From Clostridia bacterium (GTDB lineage: Bacteria; Bacillota; Clostridia; TANB77; CAG-465): a stretch of 64,000 bases of DNA. The notes under the pieces were generated by a model. It had not been told where the DNA came from. It did not search any database and worked only from the letters and a program-made list of their open reading frames with translations. Positions 19,273 through 64,000 of this stretch are shown piece after piece; position 1 is the first letter of the stretch, and each line of letters starts with the position of its first letter. The stretch lies in NCBI GenBank assembly GCA_028692955.1, contig JAQUWH010000005.1:4615-68614 (forward strand). The letters run 5' to 3'. A program made the position numbers and the translations under genes.

Positions 19273-19291
19273 TATATTCTCCTTTCACTTC

Positions 19292-35147: not shown

Positions 35148-35201
35148 GATTTTATCCTCCATAATTTTTGATTAAGTTTTAAATAAACCGCTTATAAAAT
35201 A

Positions 35202-35230
35202 ATTATATCACAGTTAATTGCATAAGTCAA
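35202..35230 (-). promoter_or_regulatory. Sigma-A promoter for the adhesin gene
   Basis: The minus strand reads TTGACT-tatgcaattaactgtga(17)-TATAAT, with TG at the extended -10 position. Confidence 0.7.
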
Positions 35231-35377
35231 CATTTTTCACGCTATTTCCCACTATTTTTATCATTTTATGGTTACATAACTATTTTTTGGTATGTCGATT
35301 TATCGATATTATTCACTACTTAATTTTGTAACATAAATGTAATATTCGCCTGTTTTCCTTATCATTATACGATATTT

Positions 35378-48324: not shown

Positions 48325-51300
48325 TTATTCAAAATCATTAGCAGCTCTATTATCTGTATCAAATAATGCAACTGTTCCTTTGATTCTATTGTATATATCA
48401 TTGTTAGCTATCTTCCAAGTGCCATTTTCAAACTGTAAACCAAGTGAATTATTTGGCATATCAGAACCAGGAGTTGAGAATCCCATGTATCCTTCATAAT
48501 CCCATTGTGATGTATTGCCTTTACCAGTTGATTTATCATTTTGATTGTATGAAACTCGAACATCATTTAATGAATCAACACATGTTATATCAAATTTTAC
48601 TCCAATATATCCATTTGCTAATGCCTTATTTAAATCAGTTTCACCTTTTGGTAAAGCAAGTGTTGAGTTTGGTAACTTAAACTCACCATACCAAGATTGA
48701 ATGTAGTTATCATCACTTGTACTCATCATATTGTCTGTTAATTTAAATGAATTACTACCAATTCTTAATGGTTCTAATTTAGAAGACATTGAACTAATAT
48801 TTCCAGTTGATTCTACTGTTGTACCATTTCTATAACCATCATTTGGTTTAAAGTATATTGTATATCCACTTCCTGCAAATTGAACATATTTACCAGATGA
48901 TGTCTTATAATATAATTCTATATTATCATTGAATGTATTACCATCTTTTGATACATAATAGTAACTTGGTTTTATATCTATATATCTATTATTTGAACCA
49001 CCTTTTGCATATTTACCCGATGTCTTTAAATCAAAGCTGATTCTATAGCCAAGTTTTGGCGCTTGTACATAATTACTTTCTGTATGTTTGTATGGTCCAA
49101 GTGGTAATATTAATTTTGATGGAACTTTATTAATATTTGTTCTATCTGTTGTTACGTTATTACCATTTCCATAGATACGTAATTGTTTGATACCAGAGAA
49201 GTATACTGTACCAGTAATGCTATTTACTTCACCTGTTGTAGAATTAATATTTCTAAATACATTTTTAAAATTTACATCTAAGCAATCTGTTACTTCGAAA
49301 TCATATATTCTTCCTATATTAATGACATCTTGCCTTTTTTGTGCAAAATATTTTGCATCTTGTGACATATTTAATCCTAAATCAGTATGATTTTTGGTTT
49401 TATTACCATCACATGTATACTCTACTTTGGATATTTGATTATTATCAACATATTTATCAGTAGTAGAAGTAACACTAATAAGATTAAGTACTGATCCTTC
49501 AAAGTTACCTTCTGGCATATTATATGTTACACCAATAATTTTGATATGGTTACCTGCAGCGGATACAGTATCCGTTTTATCCGAACTAGATTCATCAAAT
49601 CCGCTTGTTGGTGTGGCAGTAATGGAACCACCTTTTGAAACTTTAATTTTTTCGCCTGCTTTTTTAATTTGTCCATTTGTAAGTTGAATATCAAAATCAA
49701 ATATAACATAATAGTATTTAAGATATTTTTCGGTATCCTTAATCAAATCTGAATTATATCCACCACTAGCATTTGCTTTAATTTTTGGCATTAGTGTAAA
49801 TTGAGTATTTTTCTGAATAATGCCTTGATCTTTATTAGAATGATTAACGGAATTTTCAGATTTTATCTCTGCATTACCTAGAACAAGTGGTGTATATACG
49901 TTTATTTTTGTATTATTTAATGCTGTAACTGTAGCTGTGGCTTTGCCCGCCACTTTTCCTAAATTGCTATTCTTACCATTTGCTACAACAGAAACAACAT
50001 CATAAGTAGCTCTACCAATAGGTTCTCTTAATCCGTTATATTTATTGCTTGGTACATCTAACACAGTGGTATATTCATCTTTTTTCACATTATCACCAGA
50101 TTTAACCGTTACCGTATTTAGTGGTGATTTTGTTCTTAACTCATCTCTTGATGCAGTTATTTTGCTATTGATATCTACATTATAACTTAAACCAACAGAG
50201 CCATTTCCATTTACAACACCATTTTGCGAGTTACTAGAAAAATATCTAGTACTTTCATCAGCTGTAGAATTGTCTACTCTTGCTCCTGTTAATTTATACG
50301 TATCATAAGTGTAAATATCATATTTATTTTTTCCATCATTATCAAATCCTACTAAATTATATACTAATGTATATGGTTTGTATGTTGGAGTTTCTACATA
50401 TGGTTTAATTTGTTCGCCAGCTGGTACATAAGCCACTTTACAAGTCCCGTTAGCACCTTCACTGACAGAGTTTAAATTATTACCATCTTTTTTTGGATCA
50501 ACATCTAGTTTAGGAATAATACCTGTATCATTATTTGGAGTATCAGGATCTTCTCCTGGCTTATCTGGATTAGTAGGTGTTGTTTTTGTATAATAGAAAT
50601 CGATACAATAATATTTACTGTTCCCAGTAACATATACTTGTGATTTTGGGGATGTTGTTGCATCATCTCTATTTTTCATAGCATTTCCTAACACATTATC
50701 ATAACCTACTCTATATCCTTGATAATTGTATGTAGCATTCTCATACATAACAGTTCTAGATTTATCGATTAGAATTTTATCTCTTAATCCAACAACATAG
50801 GATTCACTATAACCAGATGGAACAGATACTTTAATTTTTCTGTATCCATTAGGTACTATTTTTTTAGTATTATTATCCCAACTATCAGTCAGAGTCTGAT
50901 TTAAATTGGTTAATTTACTATCCAGTATGCTATAGTTTCCTTCACTATCTTGTACCAAATGCCTTACAAGAACAGTTTTAGGTGGTTCTTGCTTAAGTTT
51001 TACAACAATCAAGGTATTATCATTGATGTTATTATAATTTTCCTGTATATTTTCTCTCAATGTTTTGAAGCTATTAAAATTGTAATTTAATTTTGAATAC
51101 CAGTCTTTCCAATTAAGTTCTTGTTGACTTGTTGTATAACCAATTTTATTAAATACATATCCATCCAATTTAGGAATTGTGATATTTTCACCAAATTCAT
51201 TACCATCTTGATCAATTAATGTGCCATCTTTATTTAATGAAAAAGTACCAGTAATACTGTTAGCAGCTTTACTTGTTTTTCCTGTTATGTCTTCCTTAAT

Positions 51301-52338
51301 AAATTCAACAGTGTATTTTTTCCCAAATATTTCCATTGGTACATATAAATAGTTATCAAATACGTTTAAAAGTGCTGTTGTATGCAGAGCATCTCTATTA
51401 TCAGAAAGCGTATAACCACCTGTTATATCATTCTTTGGTAAGATACCATGCATATCAGCTCCCCAGTATACTCCACCTGTACTAGAGTCATAAGTTGATA
51501 CAAGGGCATTATATCCTTCAGCCGCATTATTCCACTCTTTTTTTGCATATTCAGACTTTGTTCTAGCCATTTCTGAAAACATTGTCTTGTAATATGCTTT
51601 TCCATCTATAGTTTCTTTGCTATACAATTTATCATTCGTGAATATAGTATCTTTCAAAAAGCTCTTTTTAATAGCCCATCTTGTTACTTGTGCAATACCA
51701 TTCTTTGTATCAGCTGTTTTGATAAACATGCGTCTATCTATATATACATTTTGTGTTAAATAACCAGAATCATTTCTAGCTATATTACTTTCAAATTTTG
51801 ATACTGCTATTTCCCTAGATTCCGCCAAATTATCTATCTTTTCTATTGTCGACATATCAAGCCTGTGTGTTATATTGTTATTAACCGCTTTAGAGCCAAA
51901 TGTAAGATTTAATGTTGTACCTGGATCCAAATCACTAATTTCAATTATTCTTAAATATCCACTATATGTATCATATCTTACCTTTATATCTTTTCCGGTT
52001 GGTTCATTTTCATAGCCATTTTTAGATAAATTGTCTTTATGGAATACCATTGCATAACTGTCCCATGACGACTCGCCTCCACCGCTGTTCATACTGACAT
52101 TGGTATCCCACTTTCCATATCCTATACTATTAACATAGTCTTCTTCTACACTTGGTGTTGTAATAGTATTGATATAAATATATTCTCCATCACCTGAATC
52201 TTCAGTAATATTTCCTTCAAATTTTAAACTAACTGCTTGTACATTGCTACCGATAAAGGAAAATATCATAAAGCATATAAATAATAAAGCTATATTTAAA
52301 ATTCTTCTTTTGCTATTTATAATTGTTTCTTTATTCAT
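48325..52338 (-). CDS. 1337-aa secreted protein, unknown function (no cell-wall anchor)
   Basis: Sec-type signal peptide RRILNIALLFICFMIFSFIGSNVQA. Beta-rich, Asn/Thr/Tyr-rich sequence, including a segment resembling MucBP-like adhesin modules (KYTVEFIKED...ITIPKLDGYVFNKIGY). No LPXTG motif or C-terminal TM. Confidence 0.75.
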   Translation of the reverse strand: MNKETIINSKRRILNIALLFICFMIFSFIGSNVQAVSLKFEGNITEDSGDGEYIYINTITTPSVEEDYVNSIGYGKWDTNVSMNSGGGESSWDSYAMVFHKDNLSKNGYENEPTGKDIKVRYDTYSGYLRIIEISDLDPGTTLNLTFGSKAVNNNITHRLDMSTIEKIDNLAESREIAVSKFESNIARNDSGYLTQNVYIDRRMFIKTADTKNGIAQVTRWAIKKSFLKDTIFTNDKLYSKETIDGKAYYKTMFSEMARTKSEYAKKEWNNAAEGYNALVSTYDSSTGGVYWGADMHGILPKNDITGGYTLSDNRDALHTTALLNVFDNYLYVPMEIFGKKYTVEFIKEDITGKTSKAANSITGTFSLNKDGTLIDQDGNEFGENITIPKLDGYVFNKIGYTTSQQELNWKDWYSKLNYNFNSFKTLRENIQENYNNINDNTLIVVKLKQEPPKTVLVRHLVQDSEGNYSILDSKLTNLNQTLTDSWDNNTKKIVPNGYRKIKVSVPSGYSESYVVGLRDKILIDKSRTVMYENATYNYQGYRVGYDNVLGNAMKNRDDATTSPKSQVYVTGNSKYYCIDFYYTKTTPTNPDKPGEDPDTPNNDTGIIPKLDVDPKKDGNNLNSVSEGANGTCKVAYVPAGEQIKPYVETPTYKPYTLVYNLVGFDNDGKNKYDIYTYDTYKLTGARVDNSTADESTRYFSSNSQNGVVNGNGSVGLSYNVDINSKITASRDELRTKSPLNTVTVKSGDNVKKDEYTTVLDVPSNKYNGLREPIGRATYDVVSVVANGKNSNLGKVAGKATATVTALNNTKINVYTPLVLGNAEIKSENSVNHSNKDQGIIQKNTQFTLMPKIKANASGGYNSDLIKDTEKYLKYYYVIFDFDIQLTNGQIKKAGEKIKVSKGGSITATPTSGFDESSSDKTDTVSAAGNHIKIIGVTYNMPEGNFEGSVLNLISVTSTTDKYVDNNQISKVEYTCDGNKTKNHTDLGLNMSQDAKYFAQKRQDVINIGRIYDFEVTDCLDVNFKNVFRNINSTTGEVNSITGTVYFSGIKQLRIYGNGNNVTTDRTNINKVPSKLILPLGPYKHTESNYVQAPKLGYRISFDLKTSGKYAKGGSNNRYIDIKPSYYYVSKDGNTFNDNIELYYKTSSGKYVQFAGSGYTIYFKPNDGYRNGTTVESTGNISSMSSKLEPLRIGSNSFKLTDNMMSTSDDNYIQSWYGEFKLPNSTLALPKGETDLNKALANGYIGVKFDITCVDSLNDVRVSYNQNDKSTGKGNTSQWDYEGYMGFSTPGSDMPNNSLGLQFENGTWKIANNDIYNRIKGTVALFDTDNRAANDFE

Positions 52339-53631
52339 CTATTTTCCCTCACTTTCAAGTAGATTTATTCCATAATTTTTATCTTTCAATAAAATATTTA
52401 ATAATGGCTTTTGATTTACATATACATTGTCATTGTTAAAGACAAGACCTAAAGCTACATCAGCATAGCATGTAATTGTATTACCTTCATATTTTGTATC
52501 AGCTATATCCATAAATAGTATGTTTTTATCTGTATCTGAATTCTTTATTTCAAATTCTATTTTTGTTCTTGCTCTATAACTAAATCCATTGTAATATACA
52601 ATAGGCAATTGTACTGTTGCTTTTCCAGCTAATTGTATCTTATTTGATTTTACATATTCAACATACTCTTTTACAGTATTATCATCATATAGGCCAACTA
52701 TAAAATCATTAATCTGATTTTTGAATCCTTCTTCTGTTATTGTGTTATAGTCTACATTCAATATTGCCTTATAATAATTTTCAACTCCACTTTTGATAGC
52801 AGCATATTTATTTTTGATAAGTCCATATGCCTCTTTAGGATTTTTTGCTTTATCAACTGTATCTACTGTAAATTGCGCTTCATAGATTTCCTTTGGAATA
52901 TCTTTTAGAATATATGGATAATCTGCTTTATTAGATGGTAAGTTATTTTCATCTGTCTCTATTACTCCACCAGTAATGTCTGTTATGTTATATTTTTCAT
53001 AAGCGTTGATAATTAATTCATTTAACTTTCCTTTTGTTATATCCTTATTACCATTTAATTTAGTTGATGTATTTTTAATAATACCATTTGCTAGTAAATC
53101 TCTTACTGCTTTTTGTTCAACATCAGAATATGCTTCCATATCTTTTATCTTAACATCTTTTACTTTTCCATATGTTTCATCTAACAAAGTATTTTTAGCT
53201 TTGGATAAATATCTTATCACATCGATATATGCAATTCCTTGTGTTTCATTTTCTGCAGTAATTTCATTATTTGAGACTATATTTTTATCTTTAGCATACA
53301 CAACCCATTTTTCATTGCTATATGTTTCAGTAGTTGCCATATCTGATATATCTGCTTTATCTAGTAACATGCCTATCATTACTTTAATCGCTTCAGATTT
53401 GGTTACTTTCTCTGTTGATTTAGCAGAAGTATTATCGTATAGTTTATTAAATCCGTAAGTATTCATTTTCTCTTCATTTAACTTTTCGGTCTGTCTTTCT
53501 TTAAAAGTTAGAAGAAAGATAGTAGCAAACACAACAAGTGCTATTACCACCACAGCTATTACGGCAAGTAATATCATTTTCTTTGTATTTCTAGTTTTAT
53601 TTGTTTTTTTCTCTTTCATATGACACCCCAT
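52339..53631 (-). CDS. N-terminally anchored extracytoplasmic protein, paralog A (unknown function)
   Basis: 430 aa with one N-terminal TM. Clear paralogy to the 434-aa neighbour. Its stop abuts the start of the 1337-aa gene. Confidence 0.7.
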   Translation of the reverse strand: MGCHMKEKKTNKTRNTKKMILLAVIAVVVIALVVFATIFLLTFKERQTEKLNEEKMNTYGFNKLYDNTSAKSTEKVTKSEAIKVMIGMLLDKADISDMATTETYSNEKWVVYAKDKNIVSNNEITAENETQGIAYIDVIRYLSKAKNTLLDETYGKVKDVKIKDMEAYSDVEQKAVRDLLANGIIKNTSTKLNGNKDITKGKLNELIINAYEKYNITDITGGVIETDENNLPSNKADYPYILKDIPKEIYEAQFTVDTVDKAKNPKEAYGLIKNKYAAIKSGVENYYKAILNVDYNTITEEGFKNQINDFIVGLYDDNTVKEYVEYVKSNKIQLAGKATVQLPIVYYNGFSYRARTKIEFEIKNSDTDKNILFMDIADTKYEGNTITCYADVALGLVFNNDNVYVNQKPLLNILLKDKNYGINLLESEGK

Positions 53632-53649: not shown

Positions 53650-54954
53650 TTATTTTACACTTCCTGCTGTAATATTTTGTATTGGCGTTTTTACTACATA
53701 AAACATACCATACTCTTCCACAACATTTAATGGTAAATCTATGATGCTTTCTTTCTTTGTACTATCATATTTAAATGTGTTATCTGTTCCTAAATCACCT
53801 AGTAACACATTTTCCATTTTATTAGATGTTACCGTATATTCAATTTTTACTCTTACTCTATAAAGTTCTCCATCAAAGTAAATAGCTGGCATTTGTGCTT
53901 TTGCCGTACCTGTAATTTTGATATTGTTTTCTTTTACATATGCTACATATGCACTAATATCTTCGCTTGTTACTAAATCTAATGTTGCATCTGTTAAGCT
54001 TTCTTTTAATTTTGCTTCATCGGTTGTTGTATAATCAATGTTTAATATTGTATTTAAATATTGTTCAGCACAATATTTAAGTGTATTATATTTTTCTTTT
54101 ATCTTTCCATAAGTTAACTTTGCATTGTTATATTCATCTGCATCAGAGATATAATTTTCTATTTCATAGACTTCTTTGTTGATATTTGCAAGTGTATATG
54201 GATAATCAGCAATATTTTTTGGTTCTTTTGCTTTATTAATATTTACTTTTTCATCTTCTAATGTTAATGTATTGTATTTTAAAGCAAAGTTAATTACTAA
54301 CTTATTTAACTCTTGCTTTGTTAAAGTTTGTCTCCAATTATAATCCTTGTTTTCTATGATTTCATTTTTAATCATATCTTTGATTGCAAATTGTTGATCT
54401 GCTTTAAAAGATTCTAAATTTTTCACCTTTACTTCTACATCTGTATCCAAAGTTTTATTCAGTAACTTAGCTTTTGCTTTTGATAAATAAGTAAGTGCAT
54501 CGATCAAAGTTGCTTTTTCATTTTGATTTACTTTTGTTATTTCACTACTGCTAATCATTTCAAAAGATTTTGCATATTCTACCCATATTTGATTATCATA
54601 TTCTAACTTGTCCTCATAATCACTAATACCATCATAATCTGGTAGGATAGAAGTTAAGTCTACAAGTTCATCAATGTTGTTTCTATTTAAAGCTACTCCT
54701 ATTATCATTTTTAAAGATTCTGATTTTGAAACAGTTTCATTTGATTTTGTTGTTTCATTATTATATAGTTTATCAAAACCATATGAAATCATATCATTGT
54801 CATAGTTAATATTACTATTGTTTTTGTTAAAAATAAACAGTAATGCCACAACAATAATTGCAACAACAATAATGGCAATGAATAAGATGGTTATTTTTGA
54901 TTTAAACACCTTTTTCTTTTCTGTTTTTTCAATCTTTTGTTCCCCTTTTTTCAT
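53650..54954 (-). CDS. N-terminally anchored extracytoplasmic protein, paralog B (unknown function)
   Basis: 434 aa. Blocks shared with paralog A include YGF[DN]KLY[ND]N, ADYPY.L..I.KE[IV]YE and Q.P..Y[FY][DN]G..YR.R.KIE[YF]. Confidence 0.7.
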   Translation of the reverse strand: MKKGEQKIEKTEKKKVFKSKITILFIAIIVVAIIVVALLFIFNKNNSNINYDNDMISYGFDKLYNNETTKSNETVSKSESLKMIIGVALNRNNIDELVDLTSILPDYDGISDYEDKLEYDNQIWVEYAKSFEMISSSEITKVNQNEKATLIDALTYLSKAKAKLLNKTLDTDVEVKVKNLESFKADQQFAIKDMIKNEIIENKDYNWRQTLTKQELNKLVINFALKYNTLTLEDEKVNINKAKEPKNIADYPYTLANINKEVYEIENYISDADEYNNAKLTYGKIKEKYNTLKYCAEQYLNTILNIDYTTTDEAKLKESLTDATLDLVTSEDISAYVAYVKENNIKITGTAKAQMPAIYFDGELYRVRVKIEYTVTSNKMENVLLGDLGTDNTFKYDSTKKESIIDLPLNVVEEYGMFYVVKTPIQNITAGSVK

Positions 54955-54985
54955 ACTTTCACCTCAAATAAAATTATATACTTAT

Positions 54986-55014
54986 ATTATACATAATAAA
55001 TGAAAAACTAGCAA
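54986..55014 (-). promoter_or_regulatory. Sigma-A promoter for the 434/430/1337-aa unit
   Basis: The minus strand reads TTGCTA-gtttttcatttattatg(17)-TATAAT, about 30 nt upstream of GAGGTGAAAGT ATG. Confidence 0.7.
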
Positions 55015-55141
55015 GTAAATATGTATATTTTGTTAAATTTATACCCACATTTTTCCGCCTTCTTAACACAATTTTTTTGTATGTTTTTATGTTAACGGTC
55101 TGACATTCACTACTAGTTTAGCAATATCATCTTGAAGTGTA

Positions 55142-55176
55142 CAAAAAGTCTACTAACACTTATTGTTAGTAGACTC
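55142..55176 (-). terminator. Intrinsic terminator ending the pilin-like gene operon
   Basis: Perfect 12-bp stem AGTCTACTAACA / TGTTAGTAGACT, followed on the minus strand by TTTTTG. Confidence 0.65.
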
Positions 55177-55435
55177 ATTATTAAATATTTAAAATTAATT
55201 ATGGTTTATCAATTAACCAATCCAACACATTTATTTTTTTATTCCATTATATGAGGTTTCAAGATCCACATCATCTATATCTTCAAAGTTTAAAGCGTAA
55301 GGAAAAGAACCAATTGAAATGTATTTTTTATATAGCATTTCCAAACTTTTTTGCCAAGTTTTGGCACTACATACGAAAAAACTTCTCTTGCTCATATCTA
55401 CTTGATAAAAACAAAAGAAGTCTTTGATTATGATA

Positions 55436-56638
55436 TTATGGATTACATACTTTACAAGCATAGAATCCCATAAATTGTTTCATTAATAACGTTCCACTTT
55501 GATCAACTTGGCACTTTACAACCATAGAAGCTGCTTGTTGCTTTGTAATTGTGTATTCTGGTGTCATTTTTTCCTTGTTGGATACTTGATATTCTGGACA
55601 GTTCTTATCTTTATGATATAGATTCATTTTGAATTTAGAGTCTGCTGTTGGAACTGTAAAGTAGTAACGAGTTGCAAGAGTTAATCTTGTTATTCCAAAA
55701 GCTTTTGTATTTAAATATTTGTTTCCTACTGAAATACCTTGTACAAAAGCTACCAAGCCAACATTTTCAATAGAGGCATACATATCCTCTTGTGTTGTAG
55801 GTGGGAACGAGAAGCTATAGGTAATACCAGCACTTCTTGCATAAGAATTATTATTATTCGTCGCATAAGATAATTCTTTTACTACTGTATTGACAATAAT
55901 ATCTCTTCTTAAAGATGTTAGTTTATTGACTACTTCCTCTAGTAATAAAGGAGCAGTTATATCCACACCAATTAATTCTTTATTGTTATTGGAATCAGAG
56001 ATATAAAACGATTTATTCGTAGCCTCATTAAAGTTATTATACCCTAGGCCTTTGTTTGACATTCTATGGGTGATATAATCATCCATCGTAAAATCTATTT
56101 CATGAAAAGAAATAGCATTATTGCTCGTAGATATACCATCTACCATAGCATAATTACCATCTGGATTTTTTACTATTGTATAGGTATACGAATAAAATCT
56201 CTTTGGTTTTAAGGCGTGTTGCATTACTTCAGAATTTCCAGATTGATATCTCTCAATTGAAGAAACTTGAACGCCATCATAATCTATAATCGCTACAGCT
56301 GGTACAAATAATTGTAAATATTTTTCAGCAGCATCATTTCCCTTGATATCAAAATTATTATATAATGAATTAAAGAATGTATCTACTGCAATTTGTGCAT
56401 TAACACTTATTTTTTTATTTTCTGTTCCTGAATAACCATAATCTATGCTTGCATCTTCATTTTCAACTTGTTTCATTTCATTACTTGCATCAGAAACAGC
56501 AGAGTCAATGATTTGTTGATAATATATTTCCTGTTCTTGCGCCTTAATAGTAAAGGAAACATTGATATACACAACAATAATCAAAGGAAGAATTACACCA
56601 ATAAATATTAATGATAAATCTGTAATTTTCATATGCAT
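55436..56638 (-). CDS. Pilin-like N-terminus protein, 400 aa (candidate large minor subunit)
   Basis: N-terminus MHMKITDLSLIFIGVILPLIIVVYINV, then a soluble domain. Four Cys lie in the last 65 residues (NCPEY, KCQVD, ACKVCNP). Confidence 0.6.
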   Translation of the reverse strand: MHMKITDLSLIFIGVILPLIIVVYINVSFTIKAQEQEIYYQQIIDSAVSDASNEMKQVENEDASIDYGYSGTENKKISVNAQIAVDTFFNSLYNNFDIKGNDAAEKYLQLFVPAVAIIDYDGVQVSSIERYQSGNSEVMQHALKPKRFYSYTYTIVKNPDGNYAMVDGISTSNNAISFHEIDFTMDDYITHRMSNKGLGYNNFNEATNKSFYISDSNNNKELIGVDITAPLLLEEVVNKLTSLRRDIIVNTVVKELSYATNNNNSYARSAGITYSFSFPPTTQEDMYASIENVGLVAFVQGISVGNKYLNTKAFGITRLTLATRYYFTVPTADSKFKMNLYHKDKNCPEYQVSNKEKMTPEYTITKQQAASMVVKCQVDQSGTLLMKQFMGFYACKVCNP

Positions 56639-56685
56639 CTTTATAAACTATAGTAACTATAGCCTATCTCCTTTCTTCTAAAATT

Positions 56686-58431
56686 TTACTCACCTAGATA
56701 TTTCTTGTAAATGCTTTTTGCTTTATCAGAGGTTGCAATTGCCTTTACTATATTTTTATTTGTTTCAGATGAATAATTTCCTTCATCCCATGTTCCATAA
56801 GTAGATTTACTATACCACCAAGAAACATCAGATTCTGTTGGTTCTTGCATTAAAGCAATTTTATATACTCTTCTAATTGCCTCTCTACCATTTAACTTCC
56901 TATCTACTACTTCTTTTCCAAACATAAATGTTGAAACGTATTTTTCTCCTGTATAACCTGTTGCATTATACCATGAAAGCACCTCGGAAGTCATTGGTAT
57001 TCGTTGATATGCACCATAGAACAAATTATAAATAAAATTCTCTTTTCTATCTTTATATTCTTGGTATATTGGTTTTGTTATCATAACAGACTGTAAAGTT
57101 GCATTGCCTATTTTACCCCATCCAGCAACTAAAGTAAATTTAGCATAATCGTTTGGGATTCCTCTTACATTGCTATACACAATCTTGATTTCTTTATTTG
57201 GTTTATCTTCTGAAAATGTTCGCTTTGAATAAGTAAAGCCTTCCTCTTTAATGTAATCAGACATATTATTTTCATTAATATTAATAATCGTCTTATCAAA
57301 ATATTTTATTTTATAGGTAACCGTACTACCAAATACTATTTTACTTGATAACTCTCCTAAAATATATGGTCCTGTAAGTTCAGGTTGTGTTAAGTTCTCC
57401 CCACTACCTCCACCAGATGTAGCTGATTTTTTGATCTTGATAGTATCTTTGCTACGTACCGTTGGATTAGATGATATTTTCCCATGGAATACATTATTTG
57501 CAATTTGTGCCGTACACAAAACAGCTCCTGGTGTATCTGAAATCATAGAACCTAAATCATCAGATTTCAATTCAAATGTTGCAGTCCATGTATCAGCAGC
57601 ACCTATTTTTTTATCTATACTACTTGGTAAGACACTTTTTTCATTGTCAAAACCACTTAATTTCAAATTTTCTTTTAACATCTTTGGTATATCATTAATG
57701 TTATCTGTATAGTTTTGAATTTTAACATCATATTTTACTTTTTCACTTTGGTTCATCACATAGGTTGGGTAGCCATCTTCTTCTTTTATTGTTAAGCTTT
57801 TATTTAAGTCTATTTCTATATAAATATTTTCTTGTATTAAGTCACTAATAGCTGTTTCTTTCCATGCATTATTTTTAACAATGCCACCATAGTTGATTTT
57901 AATTCTTTCAATAGAAGAAGTTGGAACAATTAAATTAAATATTGCTCCTGCCATAGTGGTACTACTATTTTTTAATTTAACATAGATTTGATCTCCTACA
58001 TTTAAATAATAAGTACCATTTTTAAGTGATCTTTTATCTACACTTTTAATATCTACTTCGTTTACTTTTCCTGTTTTTGCCTCAAATATATCTTTATTAT
58101 AATCAATATAATATTGCTCTATAAACGGTGCATCTGTTATGGTAACACCATTTTCCATTGCATAAACATCCTTTGTATAGGTTTTTTTATGTACTTCAAG
58201 TTGAATATCATATAGGTTACCAGTATTTGCAAGATTTGCAATATAATTATCATACATTGCTTGGGTAATATAGCCTGAGTTTACCACTTCATCTACAAAA
58301 TTGGTAGTCACTTTTAAAGCTAAATTATATGACATATCGTCTTGTCTTTCAAAATGATTGTATAAAGGAAATAAAACCATCAAGATGACAAAAACTAACA
58401 TAACAATGACAATGCTTAAATTATCTTTCAA
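56686..58431 (-). CDS. Pilin-like N-terminus protein, 581 aa, with C-terminal DUF4214-like repeats
   Basis: TTG start after GGAGGG. The first ~190 aa are paralogous to the 260-aa protein (FPLYNHFERQDDMSYNLALKVTTNF vs LPLYIAFEKKDDISYSLALKITTNF). The C-terminus has IYNLFYGAYQRIPMTSEVLSWY and VYKIALMQEPTESDVSWWY. Confidence 0.65.
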   Translation of the reverse strand: MKDNLSIVIVMLVFVILMVLFPLYNHFERQDDMSYNLALKVTTNFVDEVVNSGYITQAMYDNYIANLANTGNLYDIQLEVHKKTYTKDVYAMENGVTITDAPFIEQYYIDYNKDIFEAKTGKVNEVDIKSVDKRSLKNGTYYLNVGDQIYVKLKNSSTTMAGAIFNLIVPTSSIERIKINYGGIVKNNAWKETAISDLIQENIYIEIDLNKSLTIKEEDGYPTYVMNQSEKVKYDVKIQNYTDNINDIPKMLKENLKLSGFDNEKSVLPSSIDKKIGAADTWTATFELKSDDLGSMISDTPGAVLCTAQIANNVFHGKISSNPTVRSKDTIKIKKSATSGGGSGENLTQPELTGPYILGELSSKIVFGSTVTYKIKYFDKTIININENNMSDYIKEEGFTYSKRTFSEDKPNKEIKIVYSNVRGIPNDYAKFTLVAGWGKIGNATLQSVMITKPIYQEYKDRKENFIYNLFYGAYQRIPMTSEVLSWYNATGYTGEKYVSTFMFGKEVVDRKLNGREAIRRVYKIALMQEPTESDVSWWYSKSTYGTWDEGNYSSETNKNIVKAIATSDKAKSIYKKYLGE

Positions 58432-58449
58432 GTATATTCCCTCCTTTTA

Positions 58450-58950
58450 CTAGAAAAATTCTATATTGGTTGCTCTCTTAATTGAGATATCTACAATTTT
58501 AACATTGTCTTTAGTATCATAGCTTACTTTATTATACGTTAAAATGTATTTTGAATCTTTTCCATCTTTTGCCGCAAGAATAGCATAGATATCCTTGATA
58601 GTGGCGTCTCTTGGTAATTGCATTAGCCCTTCTATTGTCACATTATATTTTGTGATAACTGCATTGTTGCTATCAGTTGTGATGGTTCCATTATTTTCTT
58701 CATTACCATATAAATCTCTTGCTACATAATTGTAGTAATAAGAAATTACCTCATTGATATTAAGCAAGATATCTTGTTCAACTGGAGTTTCTACAATAGT
58801 AGCGCCACCTTGCACTTCTGTATTGTAATCGTAGGCAAGATTAGCAAAATTAGTAATAGAGCCAAACAGATAAAGTGTTATTGTCAGTGCAACGATAAAC
58901 ACAAATATATATGCACCAGTATATAACGCTTCTAATGCTGAATCTTCCAT
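58450..58950 (-). CDS. Pilin-like N-terminus protein, 166 aa
   Basis: MEDSALEALYTGAYIFVFIVALTITLYLFG followed by a small soluble domain. Good SD (AAGGAGGAAG). Confidence 0.6.
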   Translation of the reverse strand: MEDSALEALYTGAYIFVFIVALTITLYLFGSITNFANLAYDYNTEVQGGATIVETPVEQDILLNINEVISYYYNYVARDLYGNEENNGTITTDSNNAVITKYNVTIEGLMQLPRDATIKDIYAILAAKDGKDSKYILTYNKVSYDTKDNVKIVDISIKRATNIEFF

Positions 58951-58962
58951 ACTCTTCCTCCT

Positions 58963-59391
58963 TTATTTTTTATATTCTGCCACCATAATGGTAGTAAAAC
59001 CTGATTTTTCTTCTACACTTGTTACATATAAAGTGGATTCGTTAATATTACTGATTAACTTTTCTTTTGCTTCCGGTGTTGTGTAATCTAAATTTTTATA
59101 TCTAAACAACACGATAGTGTCATTCATATAACGATTTAATGCATTAACAATTTCTATTCCAGTTTTAACATTTCCACTAAAGGTGTACCCCTCTTTTGTA
59201 CTAGTTCCTTCTTTATAGGTATCAAACTCATCAAAGCGGTTTTGAATGGATACATCCGTTTCATATACTTGAGAATAGATTCTTTGCATTTGTCCTACAG
59301 AAAACAGGACTCCGCTTGTCACTATAATCGTAATTAGTACACCAACAGCAATCGTTATTGCCTTATTTGATGCATCATCCAAAACACTCAC
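58963..59391 (-). CDS. Pilin-like N-terminus protein, ~140 aa
   Basis: (MSVL)DDASNKAITIAVGVLITIIVTSGVLF. The likely true start is TTG 59382, 7-8 nt after AGGAGG, giving MDDASNKA-ITIAVG. Confidence 0.6.
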   Translation of the reverse strand: MSVLDDASNKAITIAVGVLITIIVTSGVLFSVGQMQRIYSQVYETDVSIQNRFDEFDTYKEGTSTKEGYTFSGNVKTGIEIVNALNRYMNDTIVLFRYKNLDYTTPEAKEKLISNINESTLYVTSVEEKSGFTTIMVAEYKK

Positions 59392-59398
59392 CTCCTAG

Positions 59399-60181
59399 TT
59401 ACATTTGAATAGAAGCATATCGATACGATTCGTTTTGTATCGTTCCTCCATAATTAATATATACTTTCATATTATTGCCTGTATCAGCTCCAAAAGTAAG
59501 TGTATTAAATAATACAGATGCAATTGTCGTATTCGTATTTCTAATAATAACCGTAAATTGATCTCCCTTATTCATTGGATACACTACTGTTTTGCCTGTA
59601 GGCGAACTGACATCATCAATCTTATATAATCCTGATACTAACGAAATCTCAGAGGCATTCATTCTCTTATATACATTGGTATCGGTTATATCTAGAGCAT
59701 TGGTAGCAATTTCATTTACTCTAGCTCCCTCTAGCATATCAATAATTTGACTGCCTGTGTACCTTTCTTCTGAAAGTTCATAAGCTAAAATCAAATTATC
59801 ATAGATGTTCCCACGAGAATCTTTAATTACCCTATCTTTTTCGAATTGATTTTTATATAGATTATAATCAAACGTTGCTACGATTTCTTTGTACGTATCA
59901 TCTTTATATGAATATATCACTGGATTATATTTTTTTGCAACATGTTCTATTGTAATATCGTACGCATTATCACTTACTGCCAAATTTTCTATAAACTTAT
60001 TATACATGCCTAGTGTTAAATAACCTTTATTTTTTACATCATTAGCAAAATTTGTGGTTATCTTCAAAGCAAGTGAATACGATATATCATCTTTTTTCTC
60101 AAATGCAATATATAATGGCAATAAAAAGAATATTACAACAGCTATTATAATCGAAAATACCCTTTGTAAACTATCTTCCAT
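59399..60181 (-). CDS. Pilin-like N-terminus protein, 260 aa (paralog of the N-terminal part of the 581-aa protein)
   Basis: MEDSLQRVFSIIIAVVIFFLLPLY. Blocks shared with the 581-aa protein include NYGG[TI][IV][QK]N near residue 250. Confidence 0.65.
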   Translation of the reverse strand: MEDSLQRVFSIIIAVVIFFLLPLYIAFEKKDDISYSLALKITTNFANDVKNKGYLTLGMYNKFIENLAVSDNAYDITIEHVAKKYNPVIYSYKDDTYKEIVATFDYNLYKNQFEKDRVIKDSRGNIYDNLILAYELSEERYTGSQIIDMLEGARVNEIATNALDITDTNVYKRMNASEISLVSGLYKIDDVSSPTGKTVVYPMNKGDQFTVIIRNTNTTIASVLFNTLTFGADTGNNMKVYINYGGTIQNESYRYASIQM

Positions 60182-60196
60182 CTATCTTTCTCCTAT

Positions 60197-60673
60197 TTAT
60201 ATTTTATAAACAATTTCAACTAATAAAACATCTTCATTATTGACTGACTTTGTCATAGTAAATTTTTGTGTTGGAACAATGAATTGTAAGGCTTGATTAT
60301 ATGACTTTTCATCTAAATTTGTCCTAGAACTTTTGACCACCACATTTTTATTAGTGGCATCTACATTGGTATAGCTTTCAAATGAGTGATCTTGGCGAAT
60401 ATAAGTCACATTAATTTGTGCTTTTTCATCTCTATAGAAGTAATTTAAAAGATTGATAACATCTGTACCTTTTATTTCAACAGTATTATCTGTTTTTAGT
60501 AATATATTTTCAATATAATTAGCATATTCCTGTCCAATATCAGTACCCGTTCCAATTGCATTAACTAAATCTTTTGAGGTACTATAATATGCTAGAACTC
60601 CGGTAATTGTTGCAATCGTTACAAATACGCTTGCTCCTATCATAATTGCCCTCATTGGTGCACTTTCATCCAC
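60197..60673 (-). CDS. Pilin-like N-terminus protein, 158 aa
   Basis: GTG start 8 nt after AAGGGGG. The N-terminus is MDESAPMRAIMIGASVFVTIATITGVLAYY. Confidence 0.6.
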   Translation of the reverse strand: MDESAPMRAIMIGASVFVTIATITGVLAYYSTSKDLVNAIGTGTDIGQEYANYIENILLKTDNTVEIKGTDVINLLNYFYRDEKAQINVTYIRQDHSFESYTNVDATNKNVVVKSSRTNLDEKSYNQALQFIVPTQKFTMTKSVNNEDVLLVEIVYKI

Positions 60674-60701
60674 TAAAATCGCCCCCTTACCTATGTGCTT
60701 T

Positions 60702-60790
60702 AAAAATCACTCCGATAACAAGTGATTTTTAAAACATATATATATATATGTTTTAAAAGGTATATAACTATAGTATAATTATATACCTTT
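60702..60790 (-). promoter_or_regulatory. Three consecutive stem-loops between the tandem small pilin-like genes and the downstream subunit genes (candidate partial terminator or processing region)
   Basis: AAAAATCACT/AGTGATTTTT (60702-60730). A perfect 32-nt AT palindrome TTTTAAAACATATATATATATATGTTTTAAAA (60727-60758). AAAGGTATATA/TATATACCTTT (60756-60790). Confidence 0.45.
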
Positions 60791-60803
60791 TACTTATTGT
60801 TTT

Positions 60804-61280
60804 CTATTTTTCAAAGTATAATCCAACTACGTTATCAGAACCAGCTATTTTAATAACATGTGATTTGTATTTTGCTGTTGATGGAGCATAAGTCCCAGCC
60901 GCACTACTATCACTTAAAGCACCAATCCCAGATGGAGTATATCTCTCAGAAGTGATACTTGTTGTTGTATAATCACCTGCCACTGTTGCTGTTACTTTTC
61001 CATAATTTGTAGTAGTTGTTCCATTTTTTACAATGAGAACCATGCTTTCATCTTTGTAATATCTTTTGATAGCAGTTACTACTTGAGCTCCTGTTATTGT
61101 TGAATCATCAAAATCTGCTGTTAGTTGTGCTTGCAAACTCTTTGATATGTTAGATACTTGCTCTTGCCCACCCTGTAACATTTCTTGACCCATACCTGTA
61201 ATTAACATAACTGCTGCTATGATAATGATGGTAATAAATAATCCAACACCAATCATAATTGCCTTTTGTGCGTTATCCAT
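60804..61280 (-). CDS. Small pilin-like protein, copy 2 (candidate major subunit)
   Basis: 158 aa. MDNAQKAIMIGVGLFITIIIIAAVMLITGMG followed by a Ser/Thr/Gly-rich globular part. It is the tandem paralog of the next gene. Confidence 0.7.
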   Translation of the reverse strand: MDNAQKAIMIGVGLFITIIIIAAVMLITGMGQEMLQGGQEQVSNISKSLQAQLTADFDDSTITGAQVVTAIKRYYKDESMVLIVKNGTTTTNYGKVTATVAGDYTTTSITSERYTPSGIGALSDSSAAGTYAPSTAKYKSHVIKIAGSDNVVGLYFEK

Positions 61281-61291
61281 ATCTTTTCCTC

Positions 61292-61786
61292 CTATTTCTT
61301 TTTAAAATATATCCCAATAACATTATCAGAATTATTTATCTTAATTAAATGTGCTTCAAATTGTGCAGTAGTTGGTACATATGTTTTAGCATTACTAGCA
61401 TCTGACAATTTTCCTACCCCTTCAGGAGTATTAGCAGTAGTTGATTGCACGGCACCATAGCCTGTAAAATCGTTTCCACTTGTATAGTTATTTGGATTAA
61501 TTTTTCCATAACTAGATACACCTTTGCCATTATTAACAATTAAAGCCATTGTTTCATCCTTGTAATATCTTTTGATAGCAGTAATGACTTGTGCACCAGT
61601 TACAGTTGCTTCATCAAAGTCTGCAGTAAGTTGTGCTTGCAAGCTACTTGATATGTTAGATACTTGATTTTGACCTTGTGTTAACATATCCTGTCCCATT
61701 CCCGTAATCAGCATAACTGCTGCTATGATGATGATAGTAATAAACAACCCAACACCAATCATAATCGCCTTTTGCGCATTATCCAT
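61292..61786 (-). CDS. Small pilin-like protein, copy 1 (candidate major subunit)
   Basis: 164 aa. The first 31 residues are identical to copy 2. SD is AAAGGGGGGAA. It lies directly downstream of the platform gene. Confidence 0.7.
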   Translation of the reverse strand: MDNAQKAIMIGVGLFITIIIIAAVMLITGMGQDMLTQGQNQVSNISSSLQAQLTADFDEATVTGAQVITAIKRYYKDETMALIVNNGKGVSSYGKINPNNYTSGNDFTGYGAVQSTTANTPEGVGKLSDASNAKTYVPTTAQFEAHLIKINNSDNVIGIYFKKK

Positions 61787-61831
61787 TTTAAAATTCCCCC
61801 CTTTAAATATTTATTTATTAGTATTTTTACA

Positions 61832-63889
61832 TTAGAAAGACATATTATTAAAGTAGCTCATCATTTGCATAATACTTACCACCATCAGTGGTGCTACTAA
61901 ATAACCGCCTATTAAGAGTACCATTGGTGTAAAGCCTAATGCTTTTCCCATTGTTACTTTCTTTTGGATTAATCTTTGATTTCCTTCTTTTCTTCTTTCA
62001 TAGAAGAAAGATCTTTCTGTTTCCAGTTCATCAAAGGCAGCTCTAACTGGTATTCTTTCAACAGCAGATTCTAATTGTTCTACTATTCTTTGGAAATCTT
62101 TATATGGGACGGCTTCTTTTAACTCTTCTAAGGCTCTTTCAGCACCAGATTCATAGTTATTTAAGCAGGTATCAATCGGTTCTTTAAAAGCATAGGAGAA
62201 TCTTGAAAGCCATTCAAGTATCGTTTGTACGTCAATTCTATCAATATACATTAGCATCAAGATAATAGATTGGAACTGCATAATTTCATTTTCTTTTTCC
62301 ATCTCTCTTATTTTGTTCTTAACATACAAGATAAACGATGGCATCATGTATGCTATTAATGCAATCAGCAATGCTGTAAATACTTGCCAAAACTTAAGGT
62401 AAGATTGTTTGACTGCTTCAATTTTAGAATAGATTCTATCTACTGAAGTATTATCTACTTCACCAGTAATTGGATCTATCATCTGTGCAGCAAGTTCTTC
62501 TTTTGTTACCTTTTTATTCTTGTATTTATCAATATATGTTTTATCTGTTTTATTAATGGATTCTGCAGCAGCTTGTTGCTCTGCACTAAGTTTACCAAAT
62601 GATAAGAACTCTTCACTTATTTTATTATAGATAGAAGATACGTCAATACGTTGCATATTTAGTAATAGTATTAACGAAGCAACGAATGTAATAACTGCTG
62701 CGGTTAATTTATTAACATATAACCATTCAATAGTTAAATAAGCATTGGTATTTTTAATCAATGCAGTTTCTTTTCTATATTTTTTAGTATTTTCTCTAGT
62801 TTTAAAAGCATCTACTATCAATTTAAAAAGACGAATGTTATATAACTTCTCTTGCCATTTAATATTTGATACTCTGTCAAATTTTATTTCTTCTACGTCT
62901 TCTTTTATAATTCTTAACATCAAATACGATATAAATATCGAAACGATAATTAAGGATTGAACAAAGAATCCGATACTACTATCATAAAAGTTCATTAAAG
63001 CTGGGAAATTAGATTCCGCCCATGCCTGTAATGGTTTAATCGCTACCAATGGTACAACAGCAATAATGGTTAAACTTCTAAACATATAGTTAATTTTATC
63101 TCTTTTTAATATTTCTAGATAAATATCGCTTAATATATTATTTAAGTTCTTTAAATAGACAGAAGTCCCGTCTACTTTTCTGTCACCTAGATCAAGTGTC
63201 AAGTATGATACACCAGCAAATAATTTTAAGAACCTATTTGGTGCTGTATCATAATATCTTTCAAGTTCTATTTCCGGATTTTCAGAAATCATTGCCTCTT
63301 TAATTCTTCTAAGTTGAGGAACAATTTCTTTATCTCCCAAGTCATCTATTGCGGAATTAAAAGCTTCTTCAACCATTCCATGCTCATGAAATGCATGTCT
63401 AATACTAGTAAATGCTTCCGGCATTTGTTTTAACATTTTTTCTGATACAGATGTAATACCTATATCAATTATTTTTTCAGTTACAATTAAAACACCAATG
63501 ATGACAATTAAAGACATATATAAATCATCAACTAAATTAAGGAATACAAATAATGATACAAATAGGAACAAAATAGCTCTTATTACAGTTCTACCAGCTC
63601 TTCTTCTTAATTCATATTCAGTATAATCATTTGTCATTTCAAGTTTTAGTCTTGTTTTTTTCGTGTAATATTTAAGGACAGGCATTTTAGTAAAAGTTAA
63701 ATAGATAATTTGATAAAATTTATCAAATAAATCTTTGTAGTTTGTTTTTTCTTTTACAACAAGCTTATCCTTGCTATATAACACAGAATTTTTGGTATAC
63801 TTACGACGTATTATTTTGTAATAAAATAGTAAACCAAGTATTCCTATTACTGCAACTGCGATAAGGATAATTGCTATATTTGTAATCAT
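61832..63889 (-). CDS. Polytopic membrane protein with two T2SS-F (GspF/TadB-TadC/ArlJ)-like repeats: candidate fused type IV filament platform
   Basis: 685 aa. Each half has TM helices, a ~110-aa helical cytoplasmic block, then TM helices. The C-terminal block ...YKDFQRIVEQLESAVERIPVRAAFDELETERSFFYERRKEGNQRLIQKKVTMGKALGFTPMVLLIGGYLVAP resembles the TadC/GspF repeat consensus as I remember it. Confidence 0.55.
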   Translation of the reverse strand: MITNIAIILIAVAVIGILGLLFYYKIIRRKYTKNSVLYSKDKLVVKEKTNYKDLFDKFYQIIYLTFTKMPVLKYYTKKTRLKLEMTNDYTEYELRRRAGRTVIRAILFLFVSLFVFLNLVDDLYMSLIVIIGVLIVTEKIIDIGITSVSEKMLKQMPEAFTSIRHAFHEHGMVEEAFNSAIDDLGDKEIVPQLRRIKEAMISENPEIELERYYDTAPNRFLKLFAGVSYLTLDLGDRKVDGTSVYLKNLNNILSDIYLEILKRDKINYMFRSLTIIAVVPLVAIKPLQAWAESNFPALMNFYDSSIGFFVQSLIIVSIFISYLMLRIIKEDVEEIKFDRVSNIKWQEKLYNIRLFKLIVDAFKTRENTKKYRKETALIKNTNAYLTIEWLYVNKLTAAVITFVASLILLLNMQRIDVSSIYNKISEEFLSFGKLSAEQQAAAESINKTDKTYIDKYKNKKVTKEELAAQMIDPITGEVDNTSVDRIYSKIEAVKQSYLKFWQVFTALLIALIAYMMPSFILYVKNKIREMEKENEIMQFQSIILMLMYIDRIDVQTILEWLSRFSYAFKEPIDTCLNNYESGAERALEELKEAVPYKDFQRIVEQLESAVERIPVRAAFDELETERSFFYERRKEGNQRLIQKKVTMGKALGFTPMVLLIGGYLVAPLMVVSIMQMMSYFNNMSF

Positions 63890-63893
63890 TCTA

Positions 63894-64000
63894 TCACCTC
63901 CAAGCAGTATCTATGAAGTCATCAAATGATCTCACATCTTCAGCTGACATATTTTCTCTCATTGCCTTGATATTATCTTCAGATATCGGATTAGAAAATA
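63894..64000 (-). CDS. 3' end of an upstream gene of the same operon (unknown; truncated by window edge)
   Basis: Hand translation gives ...FSNPISEDNIKAMRENMSAEDVRSFDDFIDTAWR-stop (TGA 63896-63894). The stop lies inside the SD region of the platform gene. Confidence 0.45.
   Translation of the reverse strand, partial: FSNPISEDNIKAMRENMSAEDVRSFDDFIDTAWR

Follow-up and report, generated by a model that had tools for sequence, protein, structure and literature searches.

Tad/Flp pili, such as Cpa of Caulobacter and Tad of Aggregatibacter, are encoded by genes that follow the order CpaB, TadZ/CpaE, CpaF/TadA, TadB and TadC. In 2024 a study in Nature Communications (PMC11680825) described a conserved stretch of 10-14 genes as a pilus cluster of the uncultured order TANB77, where 122 of 129 species have it, and linked this pilus to the response to cancer immunotherapy. 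In the representative of that study, CAG-245 sp000435175, the cluster consists of proteins 927-938, and Table 1 of the paper lists CpaB (protein 927, 358 amino acids (aa), one transmembrane (TM) helix), TadZ (928, 231 aa), CpaE (929, 280 aa), TadA/CpaF (930, 640 aa, one TM helix), a protein with eight TM helices whose halves are structurally like TadC and TadB (931, 693 aa) and seven pilin-like proteins (932-938, 143-621 aa, mostly with one TM helix). The CpaB/TadZ/CpaE/TadA/TadB-C assignment was made there independently, by structural homology. It was further shown that 'pilin 938' (621 aa), of which only the N-terminal quarter has partial structural similarity to TadE/PilV, activated dendritic cells via TLR4 and improved the anti-PD-1 response in mice (PMC11680825). 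The cluster was claimed to be exclusive to TANB77 among gut genomes, and the paper makes no mention of a prepilin peptidase, a leader motif (MENAxKA) or microscopy. Here we describe a stretch of 64,000 nucleotides (nt) from a Clostridia bacterium of the same order (assembly GCA_028692955.1, contig JAQUWH010000005.1; hereafter the window), in which a minus-strand cluster at 55436-64000 encodes a 685-aa polytopic protein, eight N-terminally hydrophobic products and the 3' end of an upstream gene. We propose that what this cluster encodes is probably a type IV filament machine of a Tad-like (type IVc-like) kind, highly diverged, from monoderm, spore-forming gut Clostridia, and we find that it is the published TANB77 pilus cluster or its ortholog.

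The gene order, protein sizes and TM features of the TANB77 cluster are those seen at the loci of L004 (our number for a related locus), CAG:273 and Ca. Merdicola, all of which were retrieved with the 685-aa platform protein of the window at 39-43% identity. In addition, the 400-aa protein of the window is homologous to the positional equivalent of 'pilin 938', and the genomes are in both cases those of low-GC, uncultured gut Clostridia. Since order, sizes, TM features and the homology to the 938 equivalent are shared, the window belongs to the published cluster family. It differs in that its sub-clade is only about 40% identical in the platform and in that it has duplicated genes for one class of anchored protein (class B, below) and extra genes for proteins of 434, 430 and 1337 aa downstream. 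The original prediction, made from the DNA alone, had asked whether the family was already described; it was (PMC11680825), and as the cluster is in the literature its novelty is low. What is new here is an M-[E/D]-N-A-x-K-A leader motif, the absence of a linked prepilin peptidase and the existence of syntenic homologues on plasmids of Bacillales and Clostridia. These plasmid homologues make the family broader than TANB77 and speak against the claimed exclusivity, which holds only inside the gut genome catalogue searched in PMC11680825.

The platform family is large, with 934 clusters at 50% identity, and nearly all of the 150 representatives listed are 650-700 aa long, the conserved size of the single ORF being 670-695 aa. 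The 685-aa protein had no Pfam or NCBIfam match, 50 diverse homologues (down to 22% identity) gave no match to Pfam T2SS-F (PF00482) even at an E-value of 0.1, and the family profile had no match among PDB sequences. The original prediction had read each half of the protein as a repeat of the T2SS-F/TadB-TadC type, and would have given this up if PF00482 did not match; the missing match can be attributed to the divergence of the platform sequence, and the reading itself was sustained by profile-profile comparison (hhalign) with controls, by TM layout and by split homologues. Compared with a single canonical TadB or TadC the platform profile gave E-values of 0.09-0.26, and with four proteobacterial TadB/TadC pairs alone only 17-39% probability. 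Significance was reached only once Firmicute intermediates, unannotated pairs from Brevibacillus pAZOBL1 and Bacillus thuringiensis pBMB64, joined the four proteobacterial pairs in the TadB/C profile; these two plasmid pairs themselves match canonical TadB/C at 95.5% (E 1.6e-8). Against the joint profile the N-terminal half of the platform scored 96.2% (E 2.6e-9), compared with 0.39-0.42 for reversed controls and 0.0074 for the best of twenty block-shuffles, and the C-terminal half scored 87.8% (E 3.3e-6), compared with 0.0012-0.003 and 0.011 for the same controls. On the C. botulinum plasmid pOsaka2020-1 two separate proteins match the two halves, one of 298 aa the N-half (91%, E 1.1e-6) and one of 359 aa the C-half (97.3%, E 2.2e-11). 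Each half consists of one TM helix, a further hydrophobic stretch (hairpin-wide in the N-half but less so in the C-half), some 120 soluble residues and then C-terminal TM helices, which is the same kind of layout as that of Rhizobium TadB and TadC, and a close one for the N-half. These comparisons indicate that both halves are homologues of TadB/TadC (T2SS-F), the result for the C-half being the weaker.

The gene ahead of the platform is cut by the end of the window, which holds its last 35 codons, with a translation ending in NPISEDNIKAMRENMSAEDVRSFDDFIDTAWR before the stop. This is the C-terminus of a 631-aa ATPase which is seen upstream in 91%-identical metagenome contigs, as was expected in the original prediction, where the operon was said to go on upstream. 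In these contigs four genes precede the platform, coding for a 347-aa SAF protein, proteins of 235 and 271 aa and the ATPase; a secretion ATPase is therefore present beside the platform, as a fragment in the window and as a full gene in the contigs, and SAF (CpaB/RcpC-like) and ParA-like genes are present upstream of it. The ATPase has an N-terminal TM helix and the P-loop GEQGCGKTT, compared with GGTGSGKTT in CpaF. Its only good matches in the PDB were three CpaF entries (6.5e-8 with the single sequence, 1.4e-11 with a seven-sequence profile), in an alignment that spans the N2 and catalytic domains. The next match of the profile was VirB11 (0.0036), and no archaeal FlaI or GspE2 was found at E <= 0.01. 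Its segments ETAFEL, ILGEV and THHA can be read as the Asp box, Walker B motif and His box of a CpaF-like ATPase. Both the match to Pfam T2SSE (0.0058) and the best NCBIfam match, 'TadA family conjugal transfer-associated ATPase' (1e-5), lie below cut-off. By its sequence, the ATPase is a homologue of CpaF. To our knowledge, the secretion ATPases of type IV filaments are normally soluble; residues 1-270 of the ATPase at locus L003 (8101-9996) comprise the N-terminal TM helix and some 240-270 additional residues that are conserved, and the only match to this part was PDB 1rfz, a protein of unknown function (0.01).

In the 347-aa protein an N-terminal TM helix is combined with a SAF domain that passes the Pfam cut-off (1.6e-7), and the best NCBIfam matches of this protein were the FlgA C-terminal family and CpaB TIGR03177 (3e-6, below cut-off). 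Profiles of the 235- and 271-aa proteins gave weak matches in the PDB to the ParA-family ATPase 3ea0 (0.024) and to MinD (4e-4), which suggests that they may be two degenerate MinD/ParA (TadZ-like) proteins. The resulting succession of a CpaB-like, TadZ-like and CpaF-like gene and the platform reads as Tad order, and the canonical locus of a Paracoccus plasmid has the same order as clusters of the window type. Thus, the type IV filament locus that the original prediction had recognised is supported, and the ATPase, the platform halves and the gene order support its being of the Tad kind.

Behind the platform lie eight genes whose products each begin with a short polar stretch followed by a single hydrophobic helix, and the open reading frames (ORFs) and eight N-terminal sequences quoted in the prediction were each found in the ORF list exactly as given. 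Three classes of N-terminally anchored proteins were distinguished, and all three are conserved across the family. Class A includes the 164-aa protein, which has 816 detectable homologues, and its 158-aa paralogue (60804-61280), 66% identical to it and the same in the first 32 residues. Across 73 homologues of the 164-aa protein (43-100% identical) almost every one of the first 27 positions is either invariant or conserved to at least 90%. Class A N-termini were counted with a pattern in which Ala at -1 was preset and some other positions were restricted: of 278 in 85 related loci, 237 had Asn at -5, 241 Ala at -4 and 185 Lys at -2, the leader was 7 residues long in 237, and Leu or Ile followed it in 272. 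The consensus ahead of the hydrophobic helix is M-[E/D]-N-A-x-K-A. Distant members begin with MESPVVKA/I (Lysinibacillus) and MGGSLSEG/L (Butyrivibrio; a slash outside brackets marks the end of the leader), and thus the residue ahead of the helix stays small. As the cassette and the N-terminal classes recur in the 85 related loci, a chance pattern is ruled out.

Class B is represented by the 260- and 581-aa proteins, in which a stretch ending in FPLY is followed by a conserved domain of about 90 aa; residues 1-258 of the former align with residues 1-195 of the latter (E 1e-26). Like class B, class C has orthologues in Thermobacillus, Lysinibacillus, Butyrivibrio and TANB77-type loci, and its 400-aa member is homologous to Tc342 (3e-43), Bs325, Bp366 and the product of the last pilin-like gene of the CAG:273 locus (6e-10). 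Neither the G/FTLIE motif nor the Flp motif G/xxxxEY is found in the pilin-like proteins, as the prediction had said. The Pfam scan of these proteins gave no Flp or TadE match, and a Pfam and NCBIfam scan of the platform and all eight gave nothing usable. Structure prediction, which the original prediction had proposed as a check, gave for the 164-aa protein an AlphaFold2 model (predicted local distance difference test score, pLDDT, 75.5) with a helix at residues 3-57 and then a small beta-rich head. In shape and in context the class A proteins look like pilins.

We infer from this that a hexameric CpaF-like ATPase, held to the membrane by its own N-terminal helix, would drive the fused TadB-TadC platform, which would pull class A subunits out of the membrane by their N-terminal hydrophobic helix and stack them as a filament on the cell surface. 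This pilus would be built from the two small class A subunits, and the CpaB-like SAF protein and the two degenerate MinD/ParA (TadZ-like) proteins may act as a scaffold for the machine or determine where it is placed. A priming or tip complex may be formed by the minor class A paralogues together with the proteins of classes B and C, and this complex may in turn present the large Sec-secreted protein of 1337 aa. The most likely role of such a filament would be attachment to, or contact with, the host, mucus or other cells.

Compared with Tad/Flp systems, the cluster shares the gene order, CpaF as the best structural-database match of its ATPase and platform halves that are homologous to TadB and TadC. 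Several features set it apart. The platform is fused into a single 685-aa ORF, whereas in Tad it is split into separate TadB and TadC genes; the ATPase has the N-terminal TM helix and the extra N-terminal region; and there are two small degenerate ParA/MinD proteins in place of one TadZ. Flp subunits have 50-80 aa and G/xxxxEY, whereas those of the window type (140-170 aa; 142-166 aa for class A in the window) have a globular head and the leader M-[E/D]-N-A-x-K-A/[L/I], and lack E5/Y6. The window type is without TadV, without recognisable TadE/F/G and, as expected for a monoderm, without a secretin.

Split cassettes on Firmicute plasmids resemble the window type in having a SAF/RcpC protein, a T2SSE ATPase and two 'hypothetical' membrane proteins of about 300 aa. 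On the C. botulinum plasmid pOsaka2020-1 (L087, 8069-14462) an RcpC/CpaB protein, a Pfam-positive T2SSE ATPase and the 298- and 359-aa platform halves are followed by five small proteins with class III leaders (KKGG/LS), and every protein except the ATPase is annotated 'hypothetical'. Similar Tad-like cassettes are found on B. thuringiensis pBMB64 (L089, 3954-9745), a plasmid typed as conjugative by MOB-suite, and on Brevibacillus pAZOBL1 (L090, 3307-9945), where a 137-aa A24 peptidase and a G/FLAIEY pseudopilin adjoin; Pfam T2SS-F misses all of the platform proteins of these two plasmids. Homology ties the C. botulinum membrane proteins to the halves of the 685-aa protein and those of Brevibacillus and B. 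thuringiensis to canonical TadB/C. These cassettes differ from the window type in that their platforms are split, their ATPases are of soluble size (about 470 aa), their leaders are of ordinary class III (KKGG/LS; DG/FLAIEY) and, at the Brevibacillus locus, an A24 prepilin peptidase is adjacent.

Table 1. Genes of the cluster and its downstream extension in the window, with the evidence for each (a slash outside brackets marks the end of the leader)
Feature	Coordinates	Strand	Evidence
Secretion ATPase, 3' end (CpaF/TadA-like; about 631 aa in relatives, N-terminal TM helix)	63894..64000	-	C-terminus matches ATPase of loci L001-L003
Platform, TadB-like + TadC-like fusion, 685 aa	61832..63889	-	hhalign with controls, split homologues, TM layout
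Class A pilin-like, putative major subunit 1, 164 aa, MDNAQKA/IMIG	61292..61786	-	816 homologues, AlphaFold2 model
Class A pilin-like, putative major subunit 2, 158 aa	60804..61280	-	66% identical to 164-aa paralogue
Class A pilin-like, minor, 158 aa, MDESAPMRA/IMIG	60197..60673	-	ORF list, sequence comparison
Class B N-terminally anchored protein, 260 aa, ...FFLLPLY, conserved N-domain of about 90 aa	59399..60181	-	Orthologues, paralogue of 581-aa protein
Class A pilin-like, minor, 142 aa, ...DDASNKA/ITIA	58963..59391	-	ORF list, sequence comparison
Class A-like pilin-like, minor, 166 aa, MEDSALEA/LYTG	58450..58950	-	Homologous to 194-aa protein of L004
Class B large paralogue, 581 aa	56686..58431	-	Aligns with 260-aa protein; family-wide orthologues
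Class C N-terminally anchored protein, 400 aa	55436..56638	-	Positional and sequence equivalent of published 'pilin 938'
434-aa membrane-anchored protein, clade-specific accessory	53650..54954	-	36% identical to 430-aa protein; no family in Pfam scan
430-aa membrane-anchored paralogue	52339..53631	-	Paralogy to 434-aa protein
1337-aa Sec-signal protein, candidate tip adhesin or displayed surface protein	48325..52338	-	Conserved C-terminal domain 997-1284

The number of genes between 55436 and 64000 had been put at eleven; we count ten, namely the ATPase fragment, the platform and eight pilin-like genes. From 55436 to 63889 the genes are all on the minus strand and separated by 7-130 nt. The 434-aa protein is found at the same position in loci L001-L003 and L021. 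The C-terminal domain of the 1337-aa protein (residues 997-1284, about 290 residues) is shared with DUF5704 proteins of the plasmids pTHECO01 (1e-20) and pBsph (2e-11), which sit at the same position as the 1337-aa protein, and because of this conserved domain at a conserved position we take the unit to run to 48325. The terminator scan found no minus-strand terminator-like hairpin inside the operon, and Rfam found no RNA family in the window. Only two sizeable non-coding gaps occur in the unit, one of 481 nt (54955-55435) that separates the class C gene from the gene for the 434-aa protein and one of 130 nt (60674-60803) after the second major-subunit gene, and either may hold an internal promoter or attenuator. 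The window has a GC content of about 29% along its whole length, and its composition shows no break. Outside the unit it is the ordinary chromosome of a spore former, with SpoIIAA/AB-like proteins, SpoIIM, SpoIID, SpoIIID, SipL, YunB, CtpB, XerD, ribosomal proteins and PolC; the cluster is flanked by IleRS and PBP5 upstream (in relatives) and by SpoIID, SpoIIID, MreB and PolC downstream. A prophage or an integrative and conjugative element is ruled out as its origin by this housekeeping context.

A number of results weigh against the view that the cluster builds a Tad-like filament. No component of the cluster other than the SAF domain reaches a curated threshold of Pfam or NCBIfam, and the pilin-like profile matched no solved pilin among PDB sequences. 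Foldseek comparison of the 164-aa model with the PDB gave no match below E 0.38. The same was true of the AlphaFold2 model of the platform (pLDDT 75.6), for which a PilC model chain (3jc8_Ca) came no higher than rank 37, with E 2.5, in a search run on whole chains that is probably the wrong test for an all-helical membrane protein. When the two halves of the platform were aligned with each other by hhalign the E-value was 0.049 and the internal repeat was not significant, and the margin of the C-half link to T2SS-F over its controls is no more than some three orders of magnitude. The lineage is uncultured, and a filament has never been observed. The last two points of this kind are the missing linked peptidase and the invariant MENAxKA segment, which is more conserved than normal prepilin leaders and may signal that it is not removed.

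No A24 prepilin peptidase was found in the 64-kb window by ORF scans and tblastn. Likewise, tblastn with the small A24 peptidase that adjoins the Brevibacillus Tad-like cassette (Pfam 6e-14) found none in the stored loci, which reach at most 10 kb on each side of the platform gene, and the annotations of three plasmid copies show none up to 14-16 kb away. Polytopic proteins of the window that were considered as candidates turned out to be SpoIIM, a TM7S3-like protein and one of no known family. The linked peptidase on which the original prediction had made its case depend is thus absent from the window and from the related loci searched. Prepilin peptidases are often unlinked, and for this reason its absence does not refute a type IV filament; under the Tad-like reading, cleavage would presumably take place after Ala(-1) by an unlinked A24 peptidase. 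The 7-residue segment itself can be read in two ways, as a very specific recognition site or as an N-terminus that stays on. This leads to another account of the locus, to which we would give limited credence, according to which the family is a distinct and wide branch of type IV filaments, extending beyond TANB77, in which the MENAxKA-type N-terminus is either cut by an unusual peptidase or not cut at all. Such a peptidase would be archaeal PibD-like, acting at Ala in position -1; if the N-terminus is uncut, the acidic residue 2 and Lys 6 would replace the pairing of Glu5 with the N-terminus in classical pilins. In either case the membrane-tethered ATPase would assemble the filament on the fused TadB-C platform. 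We know of no precedent for a type IV filament that is independent of a peptidase.

The distribution of the family bears on a further possibility, namely that the cassette is an accessory of conjugation, as a mating-pair pilus or as the VirB11-like module of a Gram-positive type IV secretion system. A scan of one genome per GTDB species gave at least 577 matching stretches, each from its own species, and the 80 loci kept, one per species, came almost entirely from gut metagenome-assembled genomes labelled Clostridia or Clostridium sp. CAG. Full-length homologues were found on at least 35 large plasmids, with the platform at 27-35% and the ATPase at up to 59% identity, in Paenibacillus, Lysinibacillus, Thermobacillus, Alkalihalophilus, Clostridium botulinum, C. 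argentinense, C. beijerinckii and Butyrivibrio. In these copies synteny is kept and the platform is always annotated 'hypothetical'. Several of the plasmid settings point towards DNA transfer. On pTHECO01 the cassette adjoins a type IV coupling protein and a replication-relaxation protein (relaxase), on pCY186 of Butyrivibrio proteoclasticus it lies after NlpC/P60 and cell-wall hydrolase genes and before an SSB gene, and in pAW63-type plasmids related Tad-like trios lie within the tra regions, where they go by the annotation VirB11. The pAW63 literature calls the ATPase of its Tad-like cassette 'VirB11', and for pBsph a 'pilus assembly ATPase' is all that was remarked on in earlier papers. Plasmids like pBsph have been shown by experiment to be conjugative, and they have VirB4/VirB6/VirD4-like genes together with that ATPase (PMC13239906, PMC4363355). 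The best NCBIfam match of the ATPase, given above, also names conjugal transfer. Against this, the window locus is chromosomal, with housekeeping and sporulation genes on both sides, and no VirB4, coupling protein or relaxase, genes of a kind that do lie near plasmid copies, was found among the part of the window ORFs that was scanned or read. Moreover, 122 of 129 TANB77 species have the cluster as a single copy that is vertically conserved (PMC11680825), which fits a core cell-surface organelle and not a mobile element. A conjugation-linked role is thus plausible for the plasmid copies and unlikely for the chromosomal, vertically conserved copy of the window, and as an account of the cassette in general we regard it as improbable.

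About equally improbable in our judgement is a pseudopilus or display system like that of type II secretion, in which a short filament would push or anchor large Sec-exported proteins through the thick wall. Candidates for such cargo are the 1337-aa DUF5704-related protein, the 434- and 430-aa paralogues and, in Bacillales, SLH proteins. A large Sec-signal protein with the conserved C-terminal domain follows the pilin set in the window, on pTHECO01 and on pBsph, SLH or TM-anchored proteins stand between the pilin set and the large protein, and there are many 'minor' pilin-like genes relative to the major ones. However, the two near-identical, highly conserved small subunits encoded right behind the platform have the look of major pilins, the machinery belongs with the Tad type, whose pili are long, and the large protein is absent from some members, such as L004-type loci, which end with a Flg_new protein.

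The original prediction had also given the locus an archaeal flavour and had taken a fused two-repeat platform to be the archaeal arrangement. Recent transfer of an Epd/archaeal-type pilus or an archaellum-like system into Firmicutes is, however, very improbable: the [K/R]-A/[I/L] junction with its small residue at -1 and no Glu5 does resemble archaeal class III signal peptides, the platform is one polypeptide, one pilin-like protein has a weak match to ArlF (0.02, below cut-off), which is the one archaeal signal obtained, and an origin from archaeal Epd-like pili is assumed for Tad systems in general (PMC6668835), but the ATPase profile matches only CpaF and then VirB11 within E <= 0.01 in the PDB, the CpaB-like and TadZ-like accessories are bacterial Tad features, the archaeal set of FlaI/ArlI ATPase, KaiC-like ArlH, ArlJ and FlaK/PibD is not seen, as the cassette has neither a KaiC-like ArlH nor a FlaK/PibD, and, since the halves have TadB/TadC architecture and relatives have split versions, the fusion need not be an archaeal trait. 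A Com pseudopilus was ruled out in the absence of ComG-type G/FTLxE pilins and with an ATPase that is not ComGA-like.

A sortase-dependent pilus was likewise rejected as the identity of the cluster, as the sortase genes lie elsewhere in the window and are unrelated. One sortase-dependent surface system is found at 32178-35989 on the minus strand and consists of a protein of 994 aa, in which a thioester domain and seven SpaA/prealbumin-like repeats are joined by a C-terminal TM helix, and an adjoining sortase (35378-35989). A second sortase (18538-19272, within 18538-19906, minus strand) has a secreted protein of 204 aa as its neighbour. It is therefore possible that the organism has two pilus or adhesin systems that are unrelated to each other. 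Directly after the unit, at 46115-48150 on the minus strand, there is an AAA_21 ATPase (457 aa, Pfam 2e-29) with an RloB-like protein (220 aa, 5e-27), a pair which we take to be typical of phage defence of the OLD/abortive-infection type, and ahead of it a perfect TTGACA-17-TATAAT sigma-70 consensus promoter at 48200-48172. On pTHECO01 (L006, 25938-27728) a GGDEF protein and an HD-domain phosphohydrolase directly follow the homologous cluster, and the window encodes an HD+EAL protein at 606-2213, some 46 kb away from where the unit ends downstream; a link of cyclic-di-GMP to the regulation of the cluster is possible.

The cluster is the signature surface structure of TANB77, and the interest that remains in it is mechanistic, in its fused platform, its membrane-tethered ATPase, its large non-Flp subunits with MENAxKA and the lack of a linked peptidase. 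The conserved MENAxKA segment together with the missing linked peptidase poses a precise biochemical question, and the split-gene relatives of C. botulinum tie the fused platform to TadB and TadC. For annotation, it means that whole Tad-like machines of Firmicutes escape Pfam T2SS-F and T2SS-E and are labelled 'hypothetical' or 'VirB11'. As for the biology of the family, cultivable and tractable hosts of the plasmid copies are at hand in Lysinibacillus sphaericus (pBsph), Paenibacillus polymyxa M1, Butyrivibrio proteoclasticus B316 and Thermobacillus composti, and it is in such hosts that the medically relevant TANB77 pilus could at last be studied.

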